A DNA stretch of 64,000 nucleotides from an uncultured Candidatus Saccharibacteria bacterium (GCA_964515375.1 CAZERF010000005.1:22482-86481), one strand, 5' to 3'; shown: positions 13,423 through 42,355, numbered from the stretch's first letter. Notes: generated from the sequence alone by a model not told the origin. Translations and numbers: made by a program.

Positions 13423-15378
13423 TCACGCGCGAACCTGCCAAGACGGCTGTGCCATGCGCAATGCGTCAACGACACGATCAGAAACACTGTTGGCCTCGTC
13501 GTCAGAAAGCGTCCGCTCGTCGGACTGCAGGAGCATACGAAACGCGAATGACTTGCGCGACTGCTCGGGTTGCTCAAAGACATCGATAAGGGTGAGGGCG
13601 CGAACCAGTGGACCCATCACATGACGGATCACCGTTTCAACCTCACGTGCGCGGGTCTCGATCGGAACAAAAAGAGACACATCACGAACCACCGACGGAT
13701 ACCGAGACGGCATCTTGAAAATGATCCGGTCGTCTGCACGTGCGACAAGGAGACTCATGTCAAGCTCAAGTCCGTTTAGGGTCATCGTACCGAGCACCTC
13801 ATCACCGACCATGATACTTGCGACAAGTTCTCCTCCCGCTTCTTCGAAATAAACACCAGAAACACCAAGCTCTTGAGTTATCGCCTCAATGACCCCCTTC
13901 AATACAAAAAAGTCCCGCTTCTGTTCTGACTCCTTGCGCTTGTGAAAGCCCATGCATATTGCAAAGGAACTTTCTTCAAGGAGCATCCCCTTTTCCCTTC
14001 CGAAGATGTGTCCAAACTCGAAGATACGGACATCGGAAGTATGCTTGAGGTTCTCGGCTACCGCACTCTTGAGTCCCGTCATAAGCGTGTTGCGAAGATA
14101 CTTCTTGTCCGCGGCAATCGGATTTGCAACCTCTATCTCACCCTTACCCATGAAGGCGTAGGTATAGACCTCGGAGAACCCCGCGCCAACCAGAATCGCG
14201 CGCATCAAGTCACGCACACGCCACTCGCGAGAAACGACAGGAGTTCCCGAGGTTTCGACCGGGAGCGTCGGAGTCAAGCGATGATACCCCATGAGTCGCC
14301 CCACCTCTTCGGCAAGATCCTCCGTGATGCGCAGATCGAGTCGTGGAGCAGGTATTGAAAGTGTGAACCGCGCCCCCCCTTCTTCCTGCTTTTTTATTGC
14401 GGGAATACCGAGACGCTTCCACACGCGCAGAACCTCACTTGCTGAAAAGTCGGTCCCGAGTATCCGATTGATCTCATCCGGAGTCACAGCGAGTGTGACC
14501 GGTCGTTCCTTTTTAGGATAGATGTCCACCACTCCGCCAACACGAGTTGAGGTTCCTCCTGCAAGTGAGAGAATGAGTGTCGCAACCTCAAGCAGCGCAG
14601 GAAGTGTCGCTTCGGACGTTCTCCCGGACTCGAAACGTTTTGATGCGTCGGTCTTGATCCCTAATCGCTGTGCGGTCATACGAATAGTACTTGCGTCAAA
14701 GTTCGCGGATTCGATAATGATCGTCGACGTAGCCATATCCACCTCCGCCCTTGTACCCCCCTTGATCCCGGCAAGCGCAAGCGGTGCTTCCTTGTCAGCA
14801 ATGACCATGATCGAAGGATCGAGCGAGACATACTTTCCGTCGAGTGTCGTCAAGGTCTCGGCCTCCTTTGCGGGGCGAACAATGATCGCACTCCCCGCAA
14901 CTTTTGCCTGATCGAACGCATGGAGGGGTTGCCCAGTCCGAAACATCACATAGTTTGTCGCATCCACGATATTGTTGATCGAACGCTGCCCCAATGTCTC
15001 AAGCGCCTCACGAAGCCATTTGGGAGAAGGACCGACTTTGATGCCTTGAATGATCACGCCCGAGTAGCGATGCGCGCGGGGATCACGGATCGTGACCGAG
15101 AGTTTTGGCACCTGCGCGGACGAACGAGGAAGTTTTGCTGTAGGAATACGCTTAAGCGGGAGTTCAAGTATTGCGGCAACCTCTCGAGCAACGCCCTCAT
15201 GAGAGAGGCAATCGTGCGTCCGATTAGGAAGCACCTTAAGATCGATCACAATATCACCTTTCACCTTGACGATCTCTTCGATCTCAAAGGCGTGAAAGGT
15301 CAGTGCCTCTCCCAACTTCTCGGGTTTTGGAAGCGGTGAGGCAAAATAAGACTGGAGCAGTTTGTATGAGATAAGCAT
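13423..15378 (-). CDS. pheT: Phenylalanyl-tRNA synthetase beta subunit (short form, 651 aa)
   Basis: B3/4 and B5 domain similarity (QPLHAFD..., LREALETLG). Lacks the N-terminal tRNA-binding domain. Confidence 0.9.
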   Translation of the reverse strand: MLISYKLLQSYFASPLPKPEKLGEALTFHAFEIEEIVKVKGDIVIDLKVLPNRTHDCLSHEGVAREVAAILELPLKRIPTAKLPRSSAQVPKLSVTIRDPRAHRYSGVIIQGIKVGPSPKWLREALETLGQRSINNIVDATNYVMFRTGQPLHAFDQAKVAGSAIIVRPAKEAETLTTLDGKYVSLDPSIMVIADKEAPLALAGIKGGTRAEVDMATSTIIIESANFDASTIRMTAQRLGIKTDASKRFESGRTSEATLPALLEVATLILSLAGGTSTRVGGVVDIYPKKERPVTLAVTPDEINRILGTDFSASEVLRVWKRLGIPAIKKQEEGGARFTLSIPAPRLDLRITEDLAEEVGRLMGYHRLTPTLPVETSGTPVVSREWRVRDLMRAILVGAGFSEVYTYAFMGKGEIEVANPIAADKKYLRNTLMTGLKSAVAENLKHTSDVRIFEFGHIFGREKGMLLEESSFAICMGFHKRKESEQKRDFFVLKGVIEAITQELGVSGVYFEEAGGELVASIMVGDEVLGTMTLNGLELDMSLLVARADDRIIFKMPSRYPSVVRDVSLFVPIETRAREVETVIRHVMGPLVRALTLIDVFEQPEQSRKSFAFRMLLQSDERTLSDDEANSVSDRVVDALRMAQPSWQVRA

Positions 15379-15390
15379 ACGCCAAAAAAA

Positions 15391-16236
15391 TTAGACCGAA
15401 GGGAATTGCCGAATAAGACGCAAGTCGCCGGTGTAGAGCATGCGCACATCGGGGATCCCGTATTTGAGCGCAACGAAACGATCGACCCCTCCACCGAATG
15501 CAAATCCCTGCCATTCGTCCGGATCGATCCCACCCGCGCGCAACACCTCGGGATGCACCATTCCCGCACCCATGACCTCGATCCACTTCTCTACTTTTCC
15601 TTTTGCGTCAGTCCAACCAATATCGATCTCAACCGACGGCTCCGTGAATGGGAAATAGCTGGGGCGAAAACGTACCTCCATCTTCCGACCGAACACCTGC
15701 TCAAAGAATGACGAGAGGATACCCTTGAGGTCCGAGAGTGCGACTCTTCGTCCGATCATGAGACCTTCGAATTGATAGAATTGCGTTTCGTGCGTCGCGT
15801 CGGTCGCTTCGTAACGATACACCTTCCCCGGAGCAATGATGCGGATCGGTGGTTCATGCTTCTCCATATGGCGGATCTGTACAGGGGAAGTATGGGTACG
15901 CAAAAGAAGTCGCTCCAGATTGTTCCTCCCCTTCCCGTCCGCCTTCTCCTCTGTAGGGCGGAGCCAAAACGTGTCCCACATATCACGCGCTGGGTGATCC
16001 TTCGGTATATTGAGTGCGTCAAAGTTGTAATGCTCTGTCTCCACCTCCGGTCCATCCGCAACCGAAAACCCCATTCCCCCAAAGATCGTCACGATGTCAC
16101 GCATCATGACCGTGACCGGATGTAGGTTCCCCCGTTCGGGGGGGATCCCGGGGACAGTCACGTCGATACCAAGTTTGGTGCTCATATTCATTCCGCCATT
16201 ATAGGCAAAAAGACCAAAAAGACCAAGCATTGCCAT
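15391..16236 (-). CDS. pheS: Phenylalanyl-tRNA synthetase alpha subunit (short, 281 aa)
   Basis: FDALNIPKDHPARDMWDTFW, FRPSYFPFTEPSVEID, GFAFGGGVDR class II motifs. Confidence 0.9.
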   Translation of the reverse strand: MAMLGLFGLFAYNGGMNMSTKLGIDVTVPGIPPERGNLHPVTVMMRDIVTIFGGMGFSVADGPEVETEHYNFDALNIPKDHPARDMWDTFWLRPTEEKADGKGRNNLERLLLRTHTSPVQIRHMEKHEPPIRIIAPGKVYRYEATDATHETQFYQFEGLMIGRRVALSDLKGILSSFFEQVFGRKMEVRFRPSYFPFTEPSVEIDIGWTDAKGKVEKWIEVMGAGMVHPEVLRAGGIDPDEWQGFAFGGGVDRFVALKYGIPDVRMLYTGDLRLIRQFPSV

Positions 16237-16277
16237 ACTTGGTCTTTTCTTCTACTAAACCGAAGAAAATAATTCTT

Positions 16278-19200
16278 CTAGCGTTCGATGTACTGGACGC
16301 TGGGAGGCACCCCGATGCCAGAAATGTCAAAATTTGCAAAAGAGAGTCCTGAGAGCGAGACTACTCCGCCAAACTTTCCCACCGCAGTTGGGGCAAAACG
16401 AATCACGATCGTTGTGTTCCCTTTTGAATCAAGGTGATAAGGGCATTTCCCATTAACAAGTGGCCCGGCAGAAGAAAAAATACATCTAAACATTCCACTT
16501 GCACTGTCGACGTCAAACAATCCAAATCCAAAATCAGCTGTTCCTGTATTTTGAATGGTCATTGATTGGTCGCGATATCTATTTACAACAGTTGCAGGGA
16601 ATGTTTGCCCAGAACCTAATATTGTGATGATCGACGTGAACAAACCCTCACCGTTCAGATTCATTTCAAGGGGTCCATTTATCGTATTTACTCCGGAAAA
16701 GCGAACTGTTCCGGGAAGCGACCCCGTATCCATCGGTAAGAACCGAAGCAATACATCTTTATAATTATCCTGAGAAACCGTAAACGCACACCCTGTTGCC
16801 GCCGGTTGACATGAATACGTATCACCACCATTGGAAAAGGTAACTCCGATCGACATATTACCAACTCCCACATTCCACAAACGAACATACTTCTCTTTCT
16901 CTGAAGCAAGATTTGAAGAGCCAAAATCAAGAAAATTATAAACTTCAGTATAACTATTCGGATCATCAACGCTCGTTGGCGTCAACTTCATGATCGGTGA
17001 ATTAATACCAACACCACTGATCGAACGTGATACAGAGTTATCCTCCCCATCAAATGTAATTGATGTATTAATAGGACCCGTTGCTGAAGGATAAAACGCG
17101 AAAGTAAATGAAGTGGTTGCGCCAGGCGCAAGAGAAACGACAAAACACGGAGAAGGATCGATGCACCTAAATACGGAAGTGTTCATGTATGCATCAAGAA
17201 ATACGTATGTCGCGCGGAGACCAACATTTTTGACCTCAAAAGATTTTTCAGGTGCATCACCACCCACCCTCGTCTCGGAAAAAATATGAGTAACGGGAGT
17301 GACCTCAATATACGACGAAGCGATTGAATCCCCTTCAACGTCGTAGCGTGTTGTCTTTGTCGCATAATCTCCAAAGTGATATTGGATAGTGATTTCACCA
17401 TCAAAACCACTGGCATAATTTGGTTCAAAAGCAATTTTTGCAATACGTTCTGTGTAAGTATCATTTAGAATGAACGGTCCGCAATTCTCGAAACATCTGA
17501 ATGTACTTGTTGAAGAAGTAACTTGATACCACACAGAAGTCCCCGAACTTCCTGAGCGTGCAACCCTTAATCTCAAAGACTTATTTTGAACAGGAGTATT
17601 GTAGTAAGTTGTTCCGTAATCGATAGTTCCCGAATAGACACCCGGAGTAGGAAGAGAGTACCACCCTTCATCCTCATCCTCCGCCGATATACTTACTCCT
17701 GGATTGATGCCAGTACCTTGAAACGTAACTGATGTTCCCACAATGGTGAATGACCCCGTGTGTAGACCCAGAGAGGTGGGTTTAAACGTGAATTGTGTTG
17801 TTGTTGATTGCCCTCCCCCCAGTTCAAAAGAACAGTTCTGAGCGCAAGAAAAGGCACTCGGCGTCCCAAAACTCGCGGCTGAAAGGGAGACAGTAGTTGT
17901 TCCAACTCCAATATTTCTTATCGCGTAGGATGTTGTTGCGGTTGTATTCAGTAAAACATTACCAAAATTGATCCTCGTACCTCCTGCCGCAACAAGCAAT
18001 GGTAGATCATTACCATTGGCACTTAAACTGATGCTAACTGACGGAAGTCCAGTTGGAAACTCGTTAGTCAGAGAAGCAACCGTTGATGTTGCGCCGGCGA
18101 CAAGTGGTGAAAAATGTATTGTCCCTACGAACCTATATCCCTGCGAGGGGGTCACAGAGGCGTAATGATGACCAATACCCGACACGGAGGCTGGCTCAAA
18201 CGAGAAGCCATTGCTTGGGAGACCGAGCATCCTCCCCGAAAGATCACTCAGGGAGGCTCCGCTATTTTTCACATAAACACTGATCGAAGATGTTGCGCCC
18301 ATATTCACAATACCTGCGTCCCATGAATTCCAACAAGTGTTTGACTGATAAAGACAGACCGTGAGAACAGGGATGTCCGAAACACTCGAACGCAATTCCG
18401 TTGTTGTTCCTCTACCAACCAGTGCTGTCAAAGTTGCACGATCAACGCGCGCAGGATTCGCAGATAATGGGATAAAATAAATATAAATAGCCTTTTCTTG
18501 ACCACCCAAGAGGGAGTAACGACAACCAGATATCCCACCCTGACACGAATATTCCCCTTCACCTGGAAGCACAATAGCCCCTTCAAGGAGTCCACCACCG
18601 GAGTTTTTTACCGTCAGTATCTCTGGTCCAAAATATGGGGGGTTACCCAAATAGCCAAAGCCAAAATCTACAGGACCCGAAGGAGTGATCGTTGCCTCTG
18701 GTAACACATCTTCTCCAACCGCTCTTAGTTGTATTCGCCTTGAAACAGTAGGATTGTCACATGCATAAGGAATGTTTGCAGTACAATTAAATATCACTTC
18801 CTGGTCCCATTCACCCTCTTCCACGGGGGCGATTTTTATTGTTACAGGAACATCAGTTTGCCCGGGAGCAAGCGTATCCGCACAACCAGCAGTACAATAA
18901 AACGGTGCCGAGAGCGTCGAGATATTATAATTAAGAGACCTCAAACCAGTATTGCTTACATAAAAAGTTTTTGTCTGGACATCGCCAGTAAGAATATTAT
19001 CAAAAATAGAATCTCCGGAAGGACTCACAATAAAGCGCGGGTTGTTGGGACGATCAACAGTATACTCACGACTAAGATAGAGTTGAGCCGAATAAAAATT
19101 CTTTTCTGTGGTTGCGCAAGTCTCAGAATCAGCATAAGTAGGAGGGAGGCCCCTTTTTTCTGCGGCAAGATTGATTTGATGCTTCACAGAACAGATCTCT

Positions 19201-19640
19201 CCGCCCCAAAATTCAATTTTCATCACGTGATCCCCGTCGGCCTGCCGTCCGATATTGTACGAAAAGGTACCGACAATAGCATTGTTCGGATCAGTATTTT
19301 CGGGAAGCTCAATATGACAACCCGCAGGGGCAGGACGTTGCATGCAATCAGCATCAGAATGTTCCTTATTAGGAACCTCAAAACCATCCTGCTTCACATA
19401 AATATTTCCCACCCACAACGGAGGTAGCATAAACTCTCCCGTCACAATAACATCATCCTCAAACCTGTAATCTTGCTCTCTCGCAGGAGTGATCCATTTT
19501 GTAATAATATCTCCTTCTGCAGCAACAGCATAAGAGGGAGAAATAAGACAGAGCAGTAAAACAAAAAAGAGGAGTGAAAAGAACCTCTTACGCAATTTCC
19601 TTAGTGGCAACATAATATTCTGAGAATTAAATAAGATCAC
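16278..19640 (-). CDS. Large secreted surface protein (1120 aa) with repeated beta-sandwich-like domains bearing paired cysteines
   Basis: Signal peptide; Ser/Thr/Gly/Asn-rich. Repeats of pattern F/Y-x-C-x(2-6)-C-x-F...L.PG...F.P...G...G (for example FSCAQNCSFELGGGQ, FRCFENCGPFILND, FRCIDPSPCFVVSLAPG, YSCQPAATGCAFTVS, FRCIFSSAGPLVNGKCPYHL). Clearly lower GC than flanking genes. Confidence 0.7.
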   Translation of the reverse strand: MILFNSQNIMLPLRKLRKRFFSLLFFVLLLCLISPSYAVAAEGDIITKWITPAREQDYRFEDDVIVTGEFMLPPLWVGNIYVKQDGFEVPNKEHSDADCMQRPAPAGCHIELPENTDPNNAIVGTFSYNIGRQADGDHVMKIEFWGGEICSVKHQINLAAEKRGLPPTYADSETCATTEKNFYSAQLYLSREYTVDRPNNPRFIVSPSGDSIFDNILTGDVQTKTFYVSNTGLRSLNYNISTLSAPFYCTAGCADTLAPGQTDVPVTIKIAPVEEGEWDQEVIFNCTANIPYACDNPTVSRRIQLRAVGEDVLPEATITPSGPVDFGFGYLGNPPYFGPEILTVKNSGGGLLEGAIVLPGEGEYSCQGGISGCRYSLLGGQEKAIYIYFIPLSANPARVDRATLTALVGRGTTTELRSSVSDIPVLTVCLYQSNTCWNSWDAGIVNMGATSSISVYVKNSGASLSDLSGRMLGLPSNGFSFEPASVSGIGHHYASVTPSQGYRFVGTIHFSPLVAGATSTVASLTNEFPTGLPSVSISLSANGNDLPLLVAAGGTRINFGNVLLNTTATTSYAIRNIGVGTTTVSLSAASFGTPSAFSCAQNCSFELGGGQSTTTQFTFKPTSLGLHTGSFTIVGTSVTFQGTGINPGVSISAEDEDEGWYSLPTPGVYSGTIDYGTTYYNTPVQNKSLRLRVARSGSSGTSVWYQVTSSTSTFRCFENCGPFILNDTYTERIAKIAFEPNYASGFDGEITIQYHFGDYATKTTRYDVEGDSIASSYIEVTPVTHIFSETRVGGDAPEKSFEVKNVGLRATYVFLDAYMNTSVFRCIDPSPCFVVSLAPGATTSFTFAFYPSATGPINTSITFDGEDNSVSRSISGVGINSPIMKLTPTSVDDPNSYTEVYNFLDFGSSNLASEKEKYVRLWNVGVGNMSIGVTFSNGGDTYSCQPAATGCAFTVSQDNYKDVLLRFLPMDTGSLPGTVRFSGVNTINGPLEMNLNGEGLFTSIITILGSGQTFPATVVNRYRDQSMTIQNTGTADFGFGLFDVDSASGMFRCIFSSAGPLVNGKCPYHLDSKGNTTIVIRFAPTAVGKFGGVVSLSGLSFANFDISGIGVPPSVQYIER

Positions 19641-20071
19641 TCCGAAACAACAGGCTTCCCGTCCTTAAAGGGAACCTTTCCGGTAACGACAACAGACTGA
19701 GACGAGGAGGAGAAATAGTCAAATCGTGAAAGATTTGAATCAAGCTCCAACATGCGTTGATCAAACACCTTTGCATTCTCTTCCGCTTGCTCAGGTGAAG
19801 GAGGAAGTGAACCAAAATCCTCTTCTGTTTCAGGTTGAGGCAAAAGGGGAAAAGGAAACTTTCTATTTCCCTGAAAATATACAAGCGTCATAACCGACAA
19901 AAGAACTAAAAAGGAGAACAGAAGGACATACTTGCAAACGCGACATTCCTTCATTTCGCCGATCTCGGAGTGCACATCCTGGGGTTCACTTACTCCCTCA
20001 CTAATGTTGTCTTTCATAGATTTTCTCATTATATCTCTGGGACCACACTTGAAGCAATGTTGTCTATCCAC
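19637..20071 (-). CDS. Small membrane protein with N-terminal Zn-ribbon-like CxxC...CxxC and one TM helix
   Basis: MDRQHCFKCG...ECRVCKYVLLFSFLVLLSVMTLVYF. Stop overlaps the start of the downstream giant gene (ATGA). Confidence 0.45.
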   Translation of the reverse strand: MDRQHCFKCGPRDIMRKSMKDNISEGVSEPQDVHSEIGEMKECRVCKYVLLFSFLVLLSVMTLVYFQGNRKFPFPLLPQPETEEDFGSLPPSPEQAEENAKVFDQRMLELDSNLSRFDYFSSSSQSVVVTGKVPFKDGKPVVSE

Positions 20072-20123
20072 AAAATGGCGAATGCGTCACGAATGAGCAG
20101 GTAGGGGGATCTTGTATCTCAGA

Positions 20124-20133
20124 ATTATAAGCA
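20124..20133 (-). promoter_or_regulatory. Extended -10 promoter TGcTTATAAT for the Zn-ribbon/giant-protein operon
   Basis: Minus strand: ttttttgTGCTTATAATtc. Nearly identical to the element at 38265-38273. Confidence 0.45.
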
Positions 20134-20182
20134 CAAAAAAGTAGTATCAGAAAGGCGGCAAACCCGAGGTTGGCCCGGTATC

Positions 20183-20300
20183 CATTTGAGTGTGCTCGTT
20201 CTGTGGAGCCGGCAGTCAGGCTTGAACTGACGACCTACGGTTTACAAAACCGTTGCTCTACCAACTGAGCTATGCCGGCATTACGCGAGCACACTCAAAT
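20183..20300. repeat. Perfect 16-bp inverted repeat (catttgagtgtgctcg / cgagcacactcaaatg) bracketing tRNA-Thr
   Basis: Arms at 20183-20198 and 20285-20300. The spacer contains the complete tRNA. Confidence 0.8.
20204..20280 (-). tRNA. tRNA-Thr (anticodon UGU), CCA encoded
   Basis: GCCGGCAUAGCUCAGUUGGUAGAGCAACGGUUUUGUAAACCGUAGGUCGUCAGUUCAAGCCUGACUGCCGGCUCCA folds as a cloverleaf: 7-bp acceptor stem, GCUC/GAGC D-stem, ACGGU/ACCGU anticodon stem, loop UUUGUAA, T-arm GUCAG-UUCAAGC-CUGAC. Confidence 0.9.
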
Positions 20301-20310
20301 GAATCCAACC

Positions 20311-20348
20311 TTACAAAACCGTTGCTCTACCAACTGAGCCATGCCGGC
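20311..20348 (-). pseudogene. Truncated copy of the tRNA-Thr 5' half (38 nt, 1 mismatch)
   Basis: GCCGGCAUGGCUCAGUUGGUAGAGCAACGGUUUUGUAA then diverges. No anticodon-stem 3' strand or T-arm. Confidence 0.55.
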
Positions 20349-20506
20349 ATTTATGAACCCATGACAAAATATCCAATCTCTCAAAAAAAACAACTACTCT
20401 GCAAATGCCCCGACTAACTTACAAGAGCATACCAAATAGTTCAAACCTTGCAACAAGACCACTCCGTAATACCGGAAATAAGCACAGTTGCAAAATAACT
20501 TGTTGC

Positions 20507-20896
20507 TCAGACCCCTCCGTCAGTGCGTCCTCGCGAGCGCATGCGGCGACGCAACAATTCCTGATGTTCGGCGATATGCTTCAAAAAGAAAGAGGATGCG
20601 CTGCGGCGATCAATGGTGATCCTTCCGAACACATGAGCAGAGAGACGTTCGCGCATCACACGGAAGACATGAAGAACCCTCTGTACCGGGGGGCGCAGCG
20701 CGAGAAACATCCGCGCGACAATGTAAAGCAAGCGGTGGCCCAGATCATACATCTCTCCCGAAAAAAATTCGGTAAAACTTTGCGGGATCGCAGACGTATT
20801 TCCGCGCAACGTGCGACGACGCAAAAGGACTCCGAGCGCAAGCGAGAGCGCAAGAACACCAAATGATATGATCCAACTGAGCGAAAGTGCTGACAT
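20507..20896 (-). CDS. Hypothetical small membrane protein downstream of tsf
   Basis: 129-aa ORF with an N-terminal TM segment. Only its operon position supports it. Confidence 0.25.
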   Translation of the reverse strand: MSALSLSWIISFGVLALSLALGVLLRRRTLRGNTSAIPQSFTEFFSGEMYDLGHRLLYIVARMFLALRPPVQRVLHVFRVMRERLSAHVFGRITIDRRSASSFFLKHIAEHQELLRRRMRSRGRTDGGV

Positions 20897-20956: not shown

Positions 20957-21556
20957 CTACTTACCCACCGCGAAGCGCGCAAAACGAATGATCTCGGTAT
21001 TCTCTCCAAACTTCTGCACCGCACGCTTCACTAGATCGCCCACGGTAATATCCGGATCCTTCACGAAAGGTTGTTCAAGCAACACCGATTCCGCAAAATA
21101 CGCGGCGATCTTTCCTTCAAGTGCCTTCTTCTTGATCTCCTCGGGCTTTCCCGCCATGGTCTTCTCTACTTCCTCTTCAAAGAAGGAAGCAGCCTTTGCG
21201 CGATCTTCTTCCGTGATGTCATTCTGCGTACGATACTTGGGATTAAGCGCAACAACATGCATCGCGATCTCATAGGCAAGATGCTTGAATTCCTCGTTCT
21301 TTGCCACAAAATCAGTCTCACACGCAAGCTCCACGATAGCACCGACGGAGTTGTTGCCGTGAATATAGGACGCGACGACTCCCGAGCCAAGAGCACGGTC
21401 ACCCTTCTTTGCGGCGATCTCTCCGCTCTTCTTGCGCAACATCATGCGAGCCTTCTCCATGTCGCCTCCCGCCTCTTCGAGAGCCTTCTTGCATTGCATG
21501 ACCGAAACACCGGTCTCGTCACGAAGCTCCTTGATCGCATCCATGCTGATTTCCAT
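20957..21556 (-). CDS. tsf: Elongation factor Ts
   Basis: MEISMDAIKELRDETGVSVMQCKKALEEAGGDMEKA UBA-like N-terminus. Short (about 200 aa) form. Confidence 0.9.
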   Translation of the reverse strand: MEISMDAIKELRDETGVSVMQCKKALEEAGGDMEKARMMLRKKSGEIAAKKGDRALGSGVVASYIHGNNSVGAIVELACETDFVAKNEEFKHLAYEIAMHVVALNPKYRTQNDITEEDRAKAASFFEEEVEKTMAGKPEEIKKKALEGKIAAYFAESVLLEQPFVKDPDITVGDLVKRAVQKFGENTEIIRFARFAVGK

Positions 21557-21631
21557 ATGATTGAGAAAAGATAAGAACGAGTAAGACAAACGAAAACACC
21601 CTGAGGAAGGTAGGCCTTCCGTAGACGAGCA

Positions 21632-22342
21632 CTACGCGCGCGCGCGAACGCCCTCCTGATAGCTCTCCTTGAGCTCTTCGAGGAAATAGGCCACACTCTT
21701 CAATGCCGAATCATTGGCAAGGATCGGATGAGTGATCTCGTCCTTGTTGCAGTCGGAGTTGAGGATCGCAAAGGTTTCAACACGCATCTTCTTTGCTTCA
21801 GTGACGGCAATGTGTTCCGCGCGAGGATCAACGATCACGATCGCCCCGGGAATCCCCTCGAGGCTCGAGACTCCACCGAACTCGGCATGGAGTTTCGCCA
21901 TCTCACGCTCAAAGAGCAAGCGCTCTTTCTTGGTGTACTTTCCGAGATCTCCCTTTGCGAATTTGTCCGAGAGGTCCTTGAGGCGCGCAATGCGCTTCTT
22001 GATCTCATTCCAATTGGTGAGCATTCCACCGACCCACCGTTCATTGACGTACGGTGCGTTCATTGAATGAGCGACCGACTCCACTGTGCCGCGCACTTCA
22101 TCCTTGGTTCCGACAAAGAGGACAACCTTCCCCAACTTACCAAGCTCGACCATGCGCGCCTTTGCGGCGACAAGCATGCGCTGTGTCTCCTCGAGATTGA
22201 TGATATCGGCGCCATTCTTTGCGCCATAGAGATACCCCTTGACCGACGAGTGTCGGCGGGCGCGCGAGTATCCAAAGTGGGCGCCCACTTTGAACATTTC
22301 CTCGATCTGTGCGGTGTCTACGTGATTTTTTTCTTCAGTCAT
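21632..22342 (-). CDS. rpsB: 30S ribosomal protein S2
   Basis: MLVAAKARMVELGKLGKVVLFVGTK..., VIVDPRAEHIAVTEAKK. Conserved rpsB-tsf pair. Confidence 0.95.
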   Translation of the reverse strand: MTEEKNHVDTAQIEEMFKVGAHFGYSRARRHSSVKGYLYGAKNGADIINLEETQRMLVAAKARMVELGKLGKVVLFVGTKDEVRGTVESVAHSMNAPYVNERWVGGMLTNWNEIKKRIARLKDLSDKFAKGDLGKYTKKERLLFEREMAKLHAEFGGVSSLEGIPGAIVIVDPRAEHIAVTEAKKMRVETFAILNSDCNKDEITHPILANDSALKSVAYFLEELKESYQEGVRARA

Positions 22343-37530: not shown

Positions 37531-38196
37531 CTATAAGTCGCAGAAGCACAACAGGCAGAAGTCGCCGCTCCAGTCAAACTCGAAGTAACCGAGGTAGAAC
37601 TCCCAGCCACCGTCCGAGTGGCGGTACACGAACGGCACCCCGTGGTAGCCGACGGAGTCGGTCCAGAGCGCATCCTTCTCGTCGAAGGACACAGTCCATT
37701 TACCGACAGGGAATTCGTCCGCCTTCTGGTCCTGCAACAGCGTCACGCCCTGCCCGCCCACGAGGATGGCTCCCTGCTTCTTCAGGAAGGTCATGCAGTC
37801 TTCACTGGTGACCGTCGAGAGGATTGGGAAGATTCGCACGCGGTACTTCTTGCCCGGCTCCAGCTTGTTCGTCGCCTTGGCGAAGTTCTTGCTGTTCAGG
37901 TCATCGTTGAAGTAGTAGGTGGTCGGGAGCTTCTTGGTCTTCTTGGCGAAGGTGTCGAGCTGGGTGTCGTGCTTGTAGTCTGCCGGCACCGTGAACTCGA
38001 AGTCCTTGACCGCCGGACCGAAGCGCTGGTCCACCATGGCGAGTTTCTGAAGGATGGGCTTCACTTGCTCTTGCAACGCGCACCCCTCCGCAATGACCCT
38101 TTCCGCTTCATCTTCCGAGAGTTCGAGCGTGTCGACCGCAACCTCAAAGATCCTCGCGATGCGAGCCCCTTGTATCGACTTCATCTTTTTCATCAT
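37531..38196 (-). CDS. Hypothetical protein with strikingly GC3-rich codon usage
   Basis: 221 aa, no recognisable motif. Codons dominated by GAG/CTC/GTC/CGC, unlike neighbours. Antisense ORF artefact 37618-38271 is typical of high-GC3 genes. Confidence 0.5.
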   Translation of the reverse strand: MMKKMKSIQGARIARIFEVAVDTLELSEDEAERVIAEGCALQEQVKPILQKLAMVDQRFGPAVKDFEFTVPADYKHDTQLDTFAKKTKKLPTTYYFNDDLNSKNFAKATNKLEPGKKYRVRIFPILSTVTSEDCMTFLKKQGAILVGGQGVTLLQDQKADEFPVGKWTVSFDEKDALWTDSVGYHGVPFVYRHSDGGWEFYLGYFEFDWSGDFCLLCFCDL

Positions 38197-38543: not shown

Positions 38544-39626
38544 CTATTTTCCAGATTTTGTGCGATTGTCTTGCTTGCAGAGCATCTGACAATTCCCCGC
38601 GATCGTTTTTCCTCCCTCGTGCCACGGCATGACATGGTCGGCCTCCATTTCGTCTATCGAAAAATGCTTCTGACACTTCACACAAATACCTTTTTGTTTT
38701 TCATATGCTTCACGTTTCTGGTTTTCCGTGAAAGCGCGAATGCTTAAGTATCGTTCATTACGCGTGAGCACATACTCATAAATACCGGACTTCTTCGTCA
38801 CGTCCTCATCCTGCATGAGCCTTGCGATCTCGATCTCAATACTCTTTGAAGCGATCTTTGCATCCTTGAATGCATTATAGAGTGGGCCAAATGAGACCCC
38901 CTTCATTTCTTTGCGATAATTCGGGAAGGTCGTCTGTATCCAATTGATGACACCCTGAAAATATAGCCATAATTCATTTGCATTCGGTTCATGCTGATGT
39001 GTTGCCATGTACTGCTCGATGTTTCCGCCACTTACCCAATCAATAGCGGTCTCCAAATAATCCTGCCGTATCGGCGAGCCGGCCAAATAATTACTCCCAA
39101 TCGCATAAGCGGGACACCCTGATTTGCTAAAATACTTCTTTGCTTCAGTGAGCCATGTGCCGGTATAGATTGCATTGCGGAGTTCTTGGTCAGTCAGTTT
39201 TTCTCCTGCAATATTTATAGTCTTGAACCAATCCAGTTTTTCCTTGTCGTTCCCCTCACAAAAATAGACCATCAATTTATACGCAAGAATCTGTTCCCTC
39301 TCAACGTCTTCGAGGTTGTGAAAGTATTGATAGTTGATCGAGAAGTTTCCGGTCACATATTCACAAATACTAATCGTTCGCTGCTGTCCGTCGAGCACCT
39401 CGAACGAATCATTGCTATTTTTCACCCAATACATGACGTTGAGGGGGAAATTTTTACGCACCGTTTCGATCACCGCATCACGTTGTTTATCCTTGTAGAC
39501 AAACTCGCGCTGATATTTGGGGCGAATATTTAGTCTTCCGCAATAACCCACCACGCCTTCTTCGTTGCTGTTAACGTATTTATCAACAACTTCTCGAATC
39601 GTTATTTCTTTCAGTTCGATTTTCAT
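38544..39626 (-). CDS. DUF262 (ParB-like, DGQQR) + C-terminal HNH nuclease; GmrSD-like / type IV restriction-type enzyme
   Basis: VLDGQQRTISI motif. C-terminal HNH: EADHVMPWHEGGKTIAGNCQMLCKQDNRTK. Low-GC region. Confidence 0.8.
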   Translation of the reverse strand: MKIELKEITIREVVDKYVNSNEEGVVGYCGRLNIRPKYQREFVYKDKQRDAVIETVRKNFPLNVMYWVKNSNDSFEVLDGQQRTISICEYVTGNFSINYQYFHNLEDVEREQILAYKLMVYFCEGNDKEKLDWFKTINIAGEKLTDQELRNAIYTGTWLTEAKKYFSKSGCPAYAIGSNYLAGSPIRQDYLETAIDWVSGGNIEQYMATHQHEPNANELWLYFQGVINWIQTTFPNYRKEMKGVSFGPLYNAFKDAKIASKSIEIEIARLMQDEDVTKKSGIYEYVLTRNERYLSIRAFTENQKREAYEKQKGICVKCQKHFSIDEMEADHVMPWHEGGKTIAGNCQMLCKQDNRTKSGK

Positions 39627-39629
39627 TTT

Positions 39630-40650
39630 TTATATTTGCTTTCTTGCCTTAATAATTATTCTTGAAAATGGGCACTTTGTCTGACCATTCACAGTCACAG
39701 AAATATCTGTTCGTCCACGATAATTCTTCTCCACACCCAAAGTTTTACCTAAATCTCCAAAAGGTATACCAACAAGTTCAAATTGTTTCGGGTTGTATTT
39801 ATCAAGAAAGGTATCTGGAACACCCATAGCACCCTTGTAGTCAATCGGAATATCTGACACTCTTCCAACTTCAATAGCATCGTAGTTGTCATACTTAGGA
39901 TAGTCATCAGGAGAGTATCTTTTGTAAAGAATTAATTCCTCGTGCCTCTTTGGAGTATCAAGATTGGTGAACCAACTTGTATTCCCCATCGGCATATATT
40001 TTTGTCCTTCAATAACAACAATACTTTTGCTCTCATAATTATCTGGTACAAGGTATTTTTTTGGACCATTATTTATACCCAAGCCACAACTTATTATCTT
40101 GAATCAACGGAAAAATTTCCTTGTAGTGTATGGCGTTATTTGTGCCAATAATCAGAAATTTCTTTTTATGCTCAAATAGCTGTGCAAGATACTCACGAAA
40201 GAGAGAGAACGGAGGATTCGTCACAACAATATCAGCCTCCTTCAGGATCGCAACACACTCATCGCTACGAAAATCACCATTTTGCTTGAGAGGTGTTTTA
40301 ATAACATCGTCGTCATTGATCTTGCCGTTCTCATCCATATCACCGGTCAATTCGAGTTTATACGTGGGCTTTTCGTAATCAAAATGCGTTGTAACTAATT
40401 TCTTGATACCGAGATAAGAAAAATTAAGCGCAAAATAACGCCAAAAGTTGCTTTCGAGAGGATCGTCACAATTACAGAAGATCACCTTCCCTTTCAAGTG
40501 GTGCTTGTAGTGACTCACTTCTTTTTCAATATCGGCGAGTTGTGTGTAAAACTCGTCCTTTTTTGCCTGACTTGCCTTGTGGAGATTCTTGTTTGACGCT
40601 TTCGTTTCCATATCTTCGCAGTGCTCACAAGTGATGATTATGAGTATCAC
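39630..40650 (-). pseudogene. EcoRI-methylase-family N6-adenine DNA methyltransferase, interrupted by a +1 frameshift near 40070-40082
   Basis: N-terminal ORF (40069-40650) has DEFYTQ, CNCDDP, DIVVTNPPFSLFREY, HYKEIFPLIQDNKLWLGYK*. The C-terminal continuation is in another frame (39630-40082). Deleting one nt in 'tataaataatgg' restores about 340 aa. Confidence 0.65.
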
Positions 40651-40687
40651 TTATTGGCAATCTACCACAAAAAATATGATACTCATA
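40638..40687. promoter_or_regulatory. 11-bp perfect inverted repeat (tatgagtatca ... tgatactcata) in the divergent MTase/XRE intergenic region; candidate operator
   Basis: Arms at 40638-40648 and 40677-40687. Confidence 0.4.
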
Positions 40688-40727
40688 GTCCGTCGACTTA
40701 TAAGCATCATCGCCCTACGCTGAAGGG

Positions 40728-40943
40728 GTGAAGAAAAAGAGCAACATCTTAATGCAATTTGGAGAAAGAGTACGCGCATTACGCAAGCAAAAAGGTATCA
40801 GCTCTCAATTGGAGCTTGCACTCAAGACCGGTCTCGACCGCACCTACATCGGCGGGATTGAACGTGGCGAAAGAAATGTTGCTCTCATCAACATCGAAAA
40901 AATAGCAAAAGCCCTCGGAGTGAAGATCGAGGAGCTTTTCTGA
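40728..40943 (+). CDS. XRE-family helix-turn-helix transcriptional regulator (C-protein-like)
   Basis: FGERVRALRKQKGISSQLELALKTGLDRTYIGGIERGERNVALINIEKIAKAL. Confidence 0.85.
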   Translation: MKKKSNILMQFGERVRALRKQKGISSQLELALKTGLDRTYIGGIERGERNVALINIEKIAKALGVKIEELF

Positions 40944-41004
40944 TTCTCAAAAAATGGCGATATTTTGCACCTGTGGGCTCCCCTGTGGCGCAAGGAAGGG
41001 CGGT

Positions 41005-41526
41005 TCACTTGCCGGTGATTCTCCCAACCAGAAGCAAGTCCGAGTACGAACCCGAGATCGAAGGAAATTGTTCGAGTAAAAGCAGATCTTTCACTTTATT
41101 GTGCTCCGCCATATATTGCGTATCATCCCCCTCTTCCCGCATTACGGTTTCAAGCTCAATAAATGTCCCGAGTTTTGCTACGGTGTCAAGATGTATTCTT
41201 GTATTTTTAAAAAGATAGAGATCGCGTCGTTTTTCCACAACAATTTTAACGCCATAGCTTATATCAAGGAGGAATTTAAGGATAGGAACGAAAAATTGGT
41301 AGACTTTTAACATTCGATACGAGGATTCTCTTGTTCCGTTTTTGTTCACCCTGGAATAAAAAATGATTTCCGATCGCCCTCCTTCTTCCCGAATTTTCAG
41401 TCGTTTTGCACCAAGAAGATAGTAGGTATCCTTTTGTTCAAGGACGCCTTGGAATACCGCAAAACCAAGACGGCCCCGCAAAGAAGAGAGTGCGTCGACG
41501 CGTACCTTGATTTCAAGATTTCTCAT
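41005..41526 (-). CDS. CYTH-domain protein (class IV adenylyl cyclase / triphosphate tunnel metalloenzyme family)
   Basis: MRNLEIKVRV N-terminal strand; RLKIREEGG; C-terminal DTVAKLGTFIELE. Overlaps the upstream radical SAM gene by 14 nt. Confidence 0.7.
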   Translation of the reverse strand: MRNLEIKVRVDALSSLRGRLGFAVFQGVLEQKDTYYLLGAKRLKIREEGGRSEIIFYSRVNKNGTRESSYRMLKVYQFFVPILKFLLDISYGVKIVVEKRRDLYLFKNTRIHLDTVAKLGTFIELETVMREEGDDTQYMAEHNKVKDLLLLEQFPSISGSYSDLLLVGRITGK

Positions 41527-42355
41527 GCTTGCTCTTATTTCTTAAAAATTCAATCGCATCTGCTGCTCCCTCAAAAAACTCCCTCCCGCTATTTTGTACG
41601 AGAGAAGAAAGAAATTCCATTTGACCATCTCTCTTGACCATTTGAAAAGAATTTCCAGGAAGCATCCATTGAGGCTGCAGCTCAGATTCTATTTTTGAAA
41701 CATAGTCTGGGAGAAGAATCCTCACCTTGTCTTCCTTCAGGTAAAGAGGTCCTGAGTAGTAGCCAAAACAATAATCCTTTGTTTTATTAATAATATCTTC
41801 TAATTCATGATCAGAAACATCAGGAAGTAACGGGCGTATCGCGGTAGTAGTCGGAATTCCCCTCTGAAAAACAGAGGAGAGGGTTTCGATTCTTTTTTCA
41901 GGGTGAGGCACCCTTGGTTCATATTTTTCTAATAGAGACTCATCTAGACAAGGTAGAGATATGGAAAATGAAAAAATATTTCCATTTTCCTGCATTCTCA
42001 CATTAATCTCTCCTAATGCATCCACAAAACCCTCGGGCAGTGACAACTTTGTAATAACCGAGATATCTCTTCCGTATGTGCTTAATATTTCAAGAATCCT
42101 TAAGGACTCTTGCTTGTTCTGAAAGAACTCAGTATCACAACCAAGCATGATGAGGCGGATATGCTCCGGAAGATTTTGAAGCAACTCAAATTGTTGCTCA
42201 TTGAGATAGGCAACTTTTCGAGATTGCTCCTGAGACATCTCCTCAGCAAAACAATAAGTGCACTCGAGAGGACAACTGAGTTTTGAATACGTTAAAACCC
42301 TTTCTTTGTCCAATTTAAGACCTTGACTCTCAAATGACTCAATCGGATTCTCCAT
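41513..42355 (-). CDS. Radical SAM enzyme, spore-photoproduct-lyase-like (COG1533-type) family
   Basis: CPLECTYCF = CX3CX2C cluster motif 27 aa from the N-terminus. Own TATAAT and AAGGTGA start context at 42360-42395. Confidence 0.7.
   Translation of the reverse strand: MENPIESFESQGLKLDKERVLTYSKLSCPLECTYCFAEEMSQEQSRKVAYLNEQQFELLQNLPEHIRLIMLGCDTEFFQNKQESLRILEILSTYGRDISVITKLSLPEGFVDALGEINVRMQENGNIFSFSISLPCLDESLLEKYEPRVPHPEKRIETLSSVFQRGIPTTTAIRPLLPDVSDHELEDIINKTKDYCFGYYSGPLYLKEDKVRILLPDYVSKIESELQPQWMLPGNSFQMVKRDGQMEFLSSLVQNSGREFFEGAADAIEFLRNKSKHEKS

Follow-up and report, generated by a model that had tools for sequence, protein, structure and literature searches.

We analyzed a 64,000-nt stretch of genomic DNA (GCA_964515375.1, CAZERF010000005.1:22482–86481; called the window throughout), with the focus on a segment at positions 16,278–20,182 in which two adjacent genes encode a small membrane protein and a very large secreted protein. 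Minus-strand genes follow one another in the order rpsB (21632–22342), tsf (20957–21589), a membrane open reading frame (ORF) of 129 aa (20507–20896), tRNA-Thr(tgt) (20204–20279), the small ORF, the very large ORF, pheS (15391–16236), pheT (13423–15378), and gyrB; the two ORFs between the tRNA gene and pheS are both on the minus strand, as are all features of this region described below. The tRNA gene (anticodon TGT) was called by ARAGORN and matches Rfam RF00005 with 72 bits, and it serves as a conserved marker on the upstream side of the slot in which the two genes lie. Because the Rfam scan matched the tRNA alone, no riboswitch or leader RNA is evident. Judged by PheS, the closest species representatives are Patescibacteria/Paceibacterota metagenome-assembled genomes (MAGs) with 79, 75, and 71% identity, and the source organism is an uncultured member of the Patescibacteria (candidate phyla radiation, CPR), Paceibacterota/Parcubacteria. 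In what follows, L-numbers denote the loci of relatives and P-numbers denote database proteins.

The initial annotation of this DNA had described the segment as AT-richer than its pheS and tsf flanks, and this holds both for sliding-window GC, which is 41–49% within the segment (∼16.3–20.2 kb) compared with 51–56% in the flanks, and for the large gene itself, which has 44.5% GC and a GC content at third codon positions (GC3) of 0.367; the window's 47 long ORFs have a mean GC3 of 0.574 (sd 0.090). Since the difference exceeds the scatter between genes, the low-GC signal is real; the GC3 values of rpsB, tsf, and pheS are 0.62–0.68.

The small gene (19637–20017) encodes a product of 126 aa when read from the ATG at 20017, the sole start common to all homologues, and this product is 100% identical to the NCBI-derived protein P0009. 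It had been read as a protein of 144 aa starting at the GTG at 20071, which is too long: homologues lend no support to that start, and in the frame upstream of the conserved ATG, ...HCFKCGP... in the window corresponds to ...HCSKHAP... in L002, with the frame of L003 interrupted by a TGA. The large gene (16278–19613) encodes 1111 aa from the ATG at 19613, the position at which the 100% identical database protein P0001 (1111 aa) also begins; an exact-protein look-up with the 1120-aa, GTG-started reading gave no match, and it is the 1111-aa form that is on record. The overlap of the small gene's stop codon with the large gene's start codon that had been proposed depends on this GTG (19640), which is used neither by gene callers nor by homologues, and with the ATG start the gap between the two genes is 23 nt.

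The large protein opens with a predicted Sec-type signal peptide (residues 1–31; 19521–19613), recognizable by a basic n-region, a hydrophobic core, and the sequence AVA/AE, and an equivalent N-terminus is found in all homologues. A lipoprotein reading was rejected, there being no conserved lipobox Cys. Next comes a family-specific, beta-rich N-terminal domain (residues ∼32–186, ∼155 aa, with four Cys; 19056–19520), which is distant kin of Big_13/Big_6. A word-indexed profile search with this domain returned two fragments and missed the query's own protein, and it was replaced by an exhaustive search in which the profile was compared with 1.84 billion representative proteins; this identified 39 proteins at E ≤ 1e-3. 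In the strong matches, the domain sits at residues ∼25–190 of proteins that are mostly ∼1000–1550 aa long. The weak, multi-stretch matches are Big_13/Big_6 immunoglobulin (Ig) arrays, and the N-terminal domain is for this reason probably another Ig-like domain. AlphaFold models (AF2, made from 5- and 3-sequence alignments) are all-beta and of low confidence, with predicted local distance difference test (pLDDT) scores of 58.6 (N-terminal domain) and 48.4.

The remainder of the protein, residues ∼187–1100 (16308–19055), consists of eight tandem choice-of-anchor D/ASH-type Ig-like repeats of ∼115 aa each. The choice-of-anchor D profile NF012200 matches the protein over five stretches with 144.1 bits (E = 2e-42; cutoff 45) and matches its alleles and paralogues with 137–192 bits, and three Pfam models score above their cutoffs as well: PF15780 (ASH; 51.4 bits, cutoff 27), PF22544 (HYDIN_VesB_CFA65-like_Ig; 57.8 bits, cutoff 25.5), and PF22073 (Cep192_D4; 67.6 bits, cutoff 35.5). 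Together with the signal peptide, these matches bear out the initial view of a secreted, Ig-like protein of choice-of-anchor type. They also place the repeat in a known domain, NF012200, an outcome of the profile scan that the same annotation had named as counting against its proposal. An iterated hidden Markov model (HMM) built from one repeat finds eight repeats in every allele, which corrects an earlier count of "at least 5." The Cys pairs that had been noticed are real: in the same loop, seven of the eight repeats carry a short-range pair of the form C-x3-12-C, three alleles agree in all of these Cys residues, and the pairs probably form disulfides. Foldseek run with the full low-confidence model returned HYDIN/CFAP-type Ig arrays first, in agreement with the sequence matches, and a PDB sequence search with the family profile gave no match. 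At the DNA level, the large gene contains no internal repeat, which indicates that the repeats are old and not recently expanded. Its ratio of nonsynonymous to synonymous substitution rates (dN/dS) is 0.15 between the window and L002, a sign of purifying selection on a functional gene, and this ratio together with the conserved length led us to reject a pseudogene or spurious ORF. Among the longer paralogues (∼1515–1555 aa), a ∼400-aa insert inside repeat 6 carries one or two Laminin_G_3 (concanavalin-like lectin) domains.

The protein ends in the tail PPSVQYIER (16281–16307), which contains no hydrophobic anchor. Four allele types whose overall identity is only 41–47% share the sequence GVPPSVQYIER without a change, and the pattern P-S/Q-V-K/Q-F/Y-x-E is kept even in 30%-identical paralogues (IIPSVKFIEK, IPPQVKFEER). 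The tail resembles an inter-repeat linker followed by a first strand (compare the junctions INPGVSIS and INSPIMKLT) and looks like the start of an absent ninth repeat. Choice-of-anchor D proteins usually end in a C-terminal sorting signal, of the PEP-CTERM, LPXTG, or type IX kind. Here, Pfam and NCBIfam scans detected no C-terminal sorting or anchor domain, and the C-terminus is polar. The large protein thus resembles the choice-of-anchor D family in being built of secreted, multi-copy beta-sandwich surface domains whose matches to NF012200 exceed the cutoff in the window protein as well as in every allele and paralogue tested, and it differs in having an invariant polar tail and a separately encoded membrane partner in place of a sorting domain, differences that are contextual rather than domain-defining. 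Likewise, its kinship with the ASH/HYDIN/VesB/Cep192 Ig-like domains is seen in Pfam scores above the gathering thresholds and in best structural matches to the HYDIN/CFAP arrays of the ciliary central apparatus; those proteins, however, are eukaryotic, cytoplasmic scaffolds of cilia and centrosomes, whereas the large protein is bacterial, carries a secretion signal, and has a Cys pair in most of its repeats.

The 126-aa partner has a single strong transmembrane (TM) segment, YVLLFSFLVLLSVMTLVYF, which as the most hydrophobic 19-mer (residues 30–48; 19874–19930) has a Kyte–Doolittle mean of 2.37. It is preceded by a juxtamembrane CxxC (CRVC, residues 25–28; 19934–19945), the only conserved Cys motif of the protein, in which C25 and C28 are invariant across six diverse homologues, and it is followed by an allele-specific ectodomain (residues 49–126; 19640–19873) that is exchanged together with the large gene. 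From this layout, the protein is predicted to span the membrane once, with its N-terminus inside and its C-terminal part outside, a topology that a natural fusion described below supports. The TM helix and external domain given in the initial annotation are accordingly retained on grounds of hydrophobicity and of that fusion; of the cytoplasmic CxxC...CxxC given there, the CRVC next to the membrane is conserved, but the first motif (CFKC) falls outside the gene and is CSKH in L002, and L003 has a TGA in that frame. The family is small, with 19 clusters only in 5.8 billion proteins; scans of Pfam, NCBIfam, and PHROG gave no match to it, and a metagenome scan with its profile added only two further loci.

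How the locus varies is seen in the relatives with the most similar flanks. PheS is 97–100% identical among the window, L002, L003, and L086, and the large proteins of such loci fall into the four allele types mentioned above, the window and L002 belonging to one type at 76% identity. The comparison of L002 with L086 locates the change. The two are 97–100% identical in nucleotide sequence over most of pheS–pheT (74 mismatches in 2800 nt), and the opening 164 nt of their small genes differ at 2 positions; between these flanks, identity is 30–55%, that is, the sequences are essentially unalignable. Divergence begins at codon 56 of the small gene, just past the TM helix (after ...VYFQGK), and identity resumes 41 nt before the stop codon of the large gene, at GTGVPPSVQYIER. 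Transferred to the window at the nucleotide level, these breakpoints delimit an exchangeable cassette at approximately 16321–19864, made up of the small-protein ectodomain and the large protein minus its last 13 codons. At the protein level, residues 1–51 of the small protein are 80–100% identical between allele types, as is the TM segment, compared with 20–28% for the ectodomain.

Between the window and L002, dN/dS is 0.17 for the ectodomain, 0.07 for pheT, and 0.03 for pheS, with comparable dS, so that the ratio for the large gene is two to five times that of pheT and pheS. The GC contents of the alleles are 44.5, 46.2, 48.2, and 52.1%; because the alleles span this range, the low GC is a property of the window's allele and not of the locus, and composition, which the initial annotation had proposed to compare, indeed differs between relatives. 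Several Logan contigs of ∼4.0 kb begin inside tRNA-Thr and end ∼60 nt past the large gene. They come from consecutively numbered runs, of which some yielded the window-type allele and others the L003-type allele, the two having been seen in separate runs; isolated contigs of this kind would be expected if alleles with the same flanks co-occur in one assembly.

The L002/L086 pair therefore combines near-identical flanks, deeply divergent alleles, and sharp breakpoints, as looked for in an exchanged surface-protein cassette, and comparative sequence analysis indicates that the locus is a hypervariable allelic cassette that is swapped by homologous recombination between conserved flanks. That the product of the cassette is exposed at the cell surface is suggested by the signal peptide and the domain type. 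Targeting by a diversity-generating retroelement was set aside, as the divergence spans the whole gene and not one variable region, although no reverse-transcriptase search was made. In pheT, blocks of ∼100% nucleotide identity between L003 and L086 alternate with blocks of 74–85% identity, and this mosaic implies that recombination among these populations reaches beyond the cassette.

The conserved order is tsf / TM-ORF / tRNA-Thr / [slot] / pheS–pheT, and the synteny comparison suggested in the initial annotation shows that the slot between tRNA-Thr and pheS is occupied by the pair in all close relatives found (PheS 97–100%) and in relatives with PheS identities of 75–79%. One pair is present in the slot in L002, L003, and L086/L087, and two tandem pairs are present in L006 (1060–9532), L088 (171–8620), and L089 (97–7492); in L007 (125–5104), a single pair lies upstream of tRNA-Thr instead of downstream, and L008 (PheS 71%) is without a pair. 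More widely, tRNA-Thr(tgt) is found within ∼0.9–9 kb upstream of pheS in 11 of 11 complete genome loci (GTDB MAG contigs, L006–L072), and in those Paceibacterota whose tsf lies within range, both tsf and tRNA-Thr(tgt) come before pheS, mostly with rpsB ahead of tsf. Across the Paceibacterota, the 0.9–3.5 kb between tRNA-Thr and pheS carries unrelated genes according to lineage, often with a GC content below that of the surrounding locus; in other lineages, these include membrane proteins and, judging by sequence motifs inspected by eye, a candidate glycosyltransferase. A literature search found no paper that describes the two-gene module. The 129-aa ORF on the far side of the tRNA gene, between tsf and tRNA-Thr, has a hydrophobic N-terminus and homologues in the same position in L006 (34% identity) and L008 (25%), with a 122-aa gene there in L092; scans of Pfam, NCBIfam, and PHROG gave no match to it.

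The two proteins are tightly coupled. Every homologue of the small protein that we examined directly precedes a homologue of the large one (L002, L003, L086–L091, L006, L007), and in the tandem duplicates each large gene retains its own small gene. In L092 (PheS 55%), the same tsf/TM-ORF/tRNA-Thr/pheS slot, with the tRNA-Thr inverted, contains one ORF of 249 aa (1482–2231) that is an in-frame fusion of the CxxC, the TM segment, an ectodomain with the conserved R-L-x-x-L, and the N-terminal domain, without a second signal peptide and without Ig repeats. Because this fusion continues into the N-terminal domain, the C-terminal part of the small protein should lie outside the cell, and by the usual gene-fusion argument, the fusion suggests a contact between the ectodomain and the N-terminal domain. 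The small protein would thereby tether the rod formed by the large protein to the membrane by the rod's N-terminal end.

We consider it likely, on balance, that the locus encodes a variable, membrane-tethered surface fiber or adhesin. The large product would be exported via Sec, as its signal peptide implies, and would form a rod of one Big-like N-terminal domain and eight choice-of-anchor D (ASH/HYDIN-type) Ig-like domains, most of them with a short loop closed by a putative disulfide. The co-encoded 126-aa single-pass protein would hold this rod at the surface, its ectodomain docking on the rod's N-terminal domain. The ectodomain and almost the whole of the large protein would be replaced together by homologous recombination, with crossovers in a conserved anchor at either end, one formed by the first 165 nt of the small gene and the other by pheS together with the final 13 codons of the large gene, and the low GC of the window's allele would be the signature of an imported allele. 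The fiber may mediate attachment to a host cell or a substrate, and its variation may be driven by pressure from phages or hosts. Cultured Paceibacteria attach to host cells, and the AlphaFold2 models of their highly expressed extracellular proteins carry Ig-like domain labels (PMC10936435). Support is good for the anatomy and for the way in which the locus recombines, and the tethering mechanism and biological role are put forward by inference from them.

Several points weigh against this interpretation. The role of fiber or adhesin is predicted from sequence, and docking is argued from gene linkage, co-swapping, and one example of a fusion. Given the low pLDDT of the models, the geometry of the N-terminal domain and of the C-terminal tail is unreadable, and the invariance of the tail is a feature that the fiber model does not explain. 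As for an imported allele, dS between the window and L002 alleles is similar to that of the flanks, so the AT-rich allele appears to have been resident since the window and L002 lineages split, and no donor was identified. Finally, the family could serve as a coat or S-layer-like cover rather than as an adhesin.

This last possibility is the main rival to an adhesin, although we hold it to be unlikely: the large protein would be the main, S-layer-like coat and the small protein its anchor, and the variation would come from phages that use the coat as a receptor and not from adhesion to a host. A single copy at a fixed locus, a strong signal peptide, deep allelic divergence between near-identical strains, and a gene that apparently has its own terminator all fit a coat. 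The S-layer cassette of Clostridioides difficile, whose recombinational switching was reportedly first described by Dingle et al. in 2013, resembles the present locus in being a fixed-position surface-protein locus whose deeply divergent alleles are exchanged between near-identical genomes; the locus analyzed here differs in having no sequence or domain kinship with slpA, a CPR bacterium as its carrier, part of a small membrane-partner gene within the exchanged unit, and no known lattice. The parallel also counts in favor of a coat: deep allelic switching between near-identical genomes is known in C. difficile, whose SlpA serves phages as a general receptor (PMC10100898, PMC8809339). On the other side, a GC3 of 0.37, compared with 0.62–0.68 in the highly expressed rpsB and tsf, is unlike what is expected of a very abundant protein, and the relatives with two tandem modules or lectin-bearing versions look more like an adhesin repertoire. 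Moreover, the family occurs in one small sub-lineage only, with 39 representatives in a set of 1.84 billion proteins, and L008, a close relative, is without the module.

A narrower version of the adhesin reading, which we regard as tentative and rather doubtful, is that the locus serves host or partner recognition in an episymbiotic member of the Paceibacterota by means of a two-piece fiber, in which the tail would be a docking or strand-complementation element and the anchoring would fall outside the known "choices of anchor." The ectodomain of the anchor and the fiber would then have to match, and for that reason they would be exchanged as one unit between near-clonal strains.

It is less probable still, and we think it a poor fit, that the segment is a classical genomic island that was recently integrated site-specifically at tRNA-Thr, the two genes being foreign cargo without a history in the lineage. 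Like tRNA-linked genomic islands, the segment adjoins a tRNA gene, has an atypical composition (low GC and low GC3), and lies near tRNA-fragment scars, which are found around tRNA-Thr in the window and in relatives and include a 3′-half copy downstream in L093; in addition, the genes that fill the slot across the Paceibacterota are unrelated to one another, and the GC content there is often below that of the locus around it. Unlike such islands, it contains two genes only, with no integrase or other mobility gene detected in Pfam, NCBIfam, and PHROG scans, and no flanking att repeats: the 3′ 26-mer of the tRNA, with up to three mismatches allowed, matches only the tRNA itself in the window, leaving no copy at a distal border. 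Nor is its presence sporadic, since the pair is in the same slot in every close relative and in the relatives with PheS identities of 75–79%; dS between the window and L002 resembles that of the flanks; and the breakpoints lie within coding sequence, inside the small gene and in the last codons of the large gene, and not at the tRNA. As the PHROGs scan gave no match, there is no sign of a phage origin either. The initial idea of a horizontally acquired module at the tRNA gene is therefore not supported, with neither integrase nor att repeat detected and the pair shared by every close relative found, although the allele itself does move, by homologous recombination.

The tRNA-fragment scars are of interest in their own right. 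The sole tRNA-derived repeat of the window is a 41-nt copy of the 5′ half of tRNA-Thr (20311–20351, 98% identical) on the other side of the tRNA from the cassette, and a 19-nt inverted repeat (20180–20198/20286–20304) brackets the whole tRNA gene. In L093 (5441–5850), the same 5′-half copy and a perfect inverted repeat are accompanied by a 3′-half copy and a further remnant downstream, and other tRNA fragments are found in L002 (1–330), L006, L008, and L092 (1105–1481). Scars in several lineages point to repeated rearrangements near tRNA-Thr, and the inverted repeat, which is conserved where the other spacer sequence does not align, may function as a processing stem or be a relic of recombination.

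Least probable of all, and in our view very improbable, is that the small protein is a Zn-ribbon, anti-sigma-like TM sensor that passes a signal across the membrane when prompted by the large protein or by a cue from outside: a single membrane pass and a cytoplasmic Cys motif do recall zinc-binding anti-sigma factors and Zn-ribbon membrane proteins, and the conserved CxxC could bind metal if the protein dimerizes, but the second CxxC that a Zn ribbon needs falls before the conserved start and is not shared by the relatives, so that only C25 and C28 are invariant where four metal ligands (two CxxC motifs or HxxxCxxC) were looked for in the cytoplasmic part, this part is only ∼29 residues long, the neighbors in the window and in all relatives are tRNA-Thr, tsf, and pheS–pheT with no adjoining sigma factor or regulator, and the protein has no Pfam or NCBIfam match. 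The Zn ribbon and the anti-sigma-like or sensor-like role given in the initial annotation are for these reasons abandoned, the first CxxC being upstream of the gene and missing from the relatives at that position.

Turning to transcription, the pair was initially assigned a promoter of its own at TGCTTATAAT. This −10-like motif is present, at 20124–20133, and was read from the sequence as putative, but a promoter scan scored no −35/−10 pair there and the motif is absent from the aligned positions in L002 and L003. A second candidate is a conserved upstream block, TTGCTT-18 nt-TATAAT (20028–20057), which ends 10 nt 5′ of the conserved ATG of the small gene. It aligns as TTGCTY-18-TAYAAT in the window, L002, and L003, where the remaining intergenic region does not align; the promoter scan leaves it unscored, as the −35 element agrees at 3/6 positions only. 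The block is a possible promoter that would give a nearly leaderless mRNA. Between the large gene and pheS, a terminator scan found a terminator-like hairpin with a T-run (16216–16249), and just downstream of it a TATAAT (16198–16203) lies 6 nt before an in-frame ATG at 16191; on the strength of this arrangement, the small and large genes probably form a transcription unit of their own.

The same features touch on pheS. The first codons of its annotated ORF (start at 16236) overlap the terminator-like hairpin, and the more distant PheS homologues align only from residue ∼12–24 of that ORF, and the annotated start is probably too far upstream. Taken together, the TATAAT preceding the ATG at 16191, the point from which homologues align, and the overlap with the hairpin suggest that the pheS mRNA is leaderless or nearly so.

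Elsewhere in the window, a second low-GC stretch (38544–42355, 36–44% GC) encodes a GmrSD/HNH-type endonuclease, an EcoRI-like adenine methylase in two ORFs, a CYTH protein, and a radical-SAM protein. The two methylase ORFs, 40069–40650 and 39630–40082, cover profile positions 1–192 and 193–344, respectively, and the stretch looks like a defense island with a frameshifted or split methylase. Adjoining it is a 221-aa ORF (37531–38196, minus strand) with a GC3 of 0.85 and no Pfam match, which may not be a real gene or may be an unusual one.

The domain type of the large protein is already known, and what remains of interest is a lineage-restricted, two-gene CPR surface module that is exchanged as an allelic cassette, taking along the portion of the membrane partner that matches it. 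The co-swapped partner and the single fused homologue suggest a two-part form of anchoring for choice-of-anchor D proteins that have no sorting signal. For metagenomics, the cassette offers a concrete marker with which to track strain dynamics, and the isolated ∼4-kb contigs that run from tRNA-Thr to just past the large gene in several short assemblies indicate that the stretch may drop out of binned genomes. Most of what is known about how CPR/Patescibacteria recognize their hosts and stay attached to them comes, to our knowledge, from a few cultured Saccharibacteria; a surface locus that is swapped wholesale between near-identical flanks lends itself as a candidate for what sets host range or phage sensitivity at the strain level.

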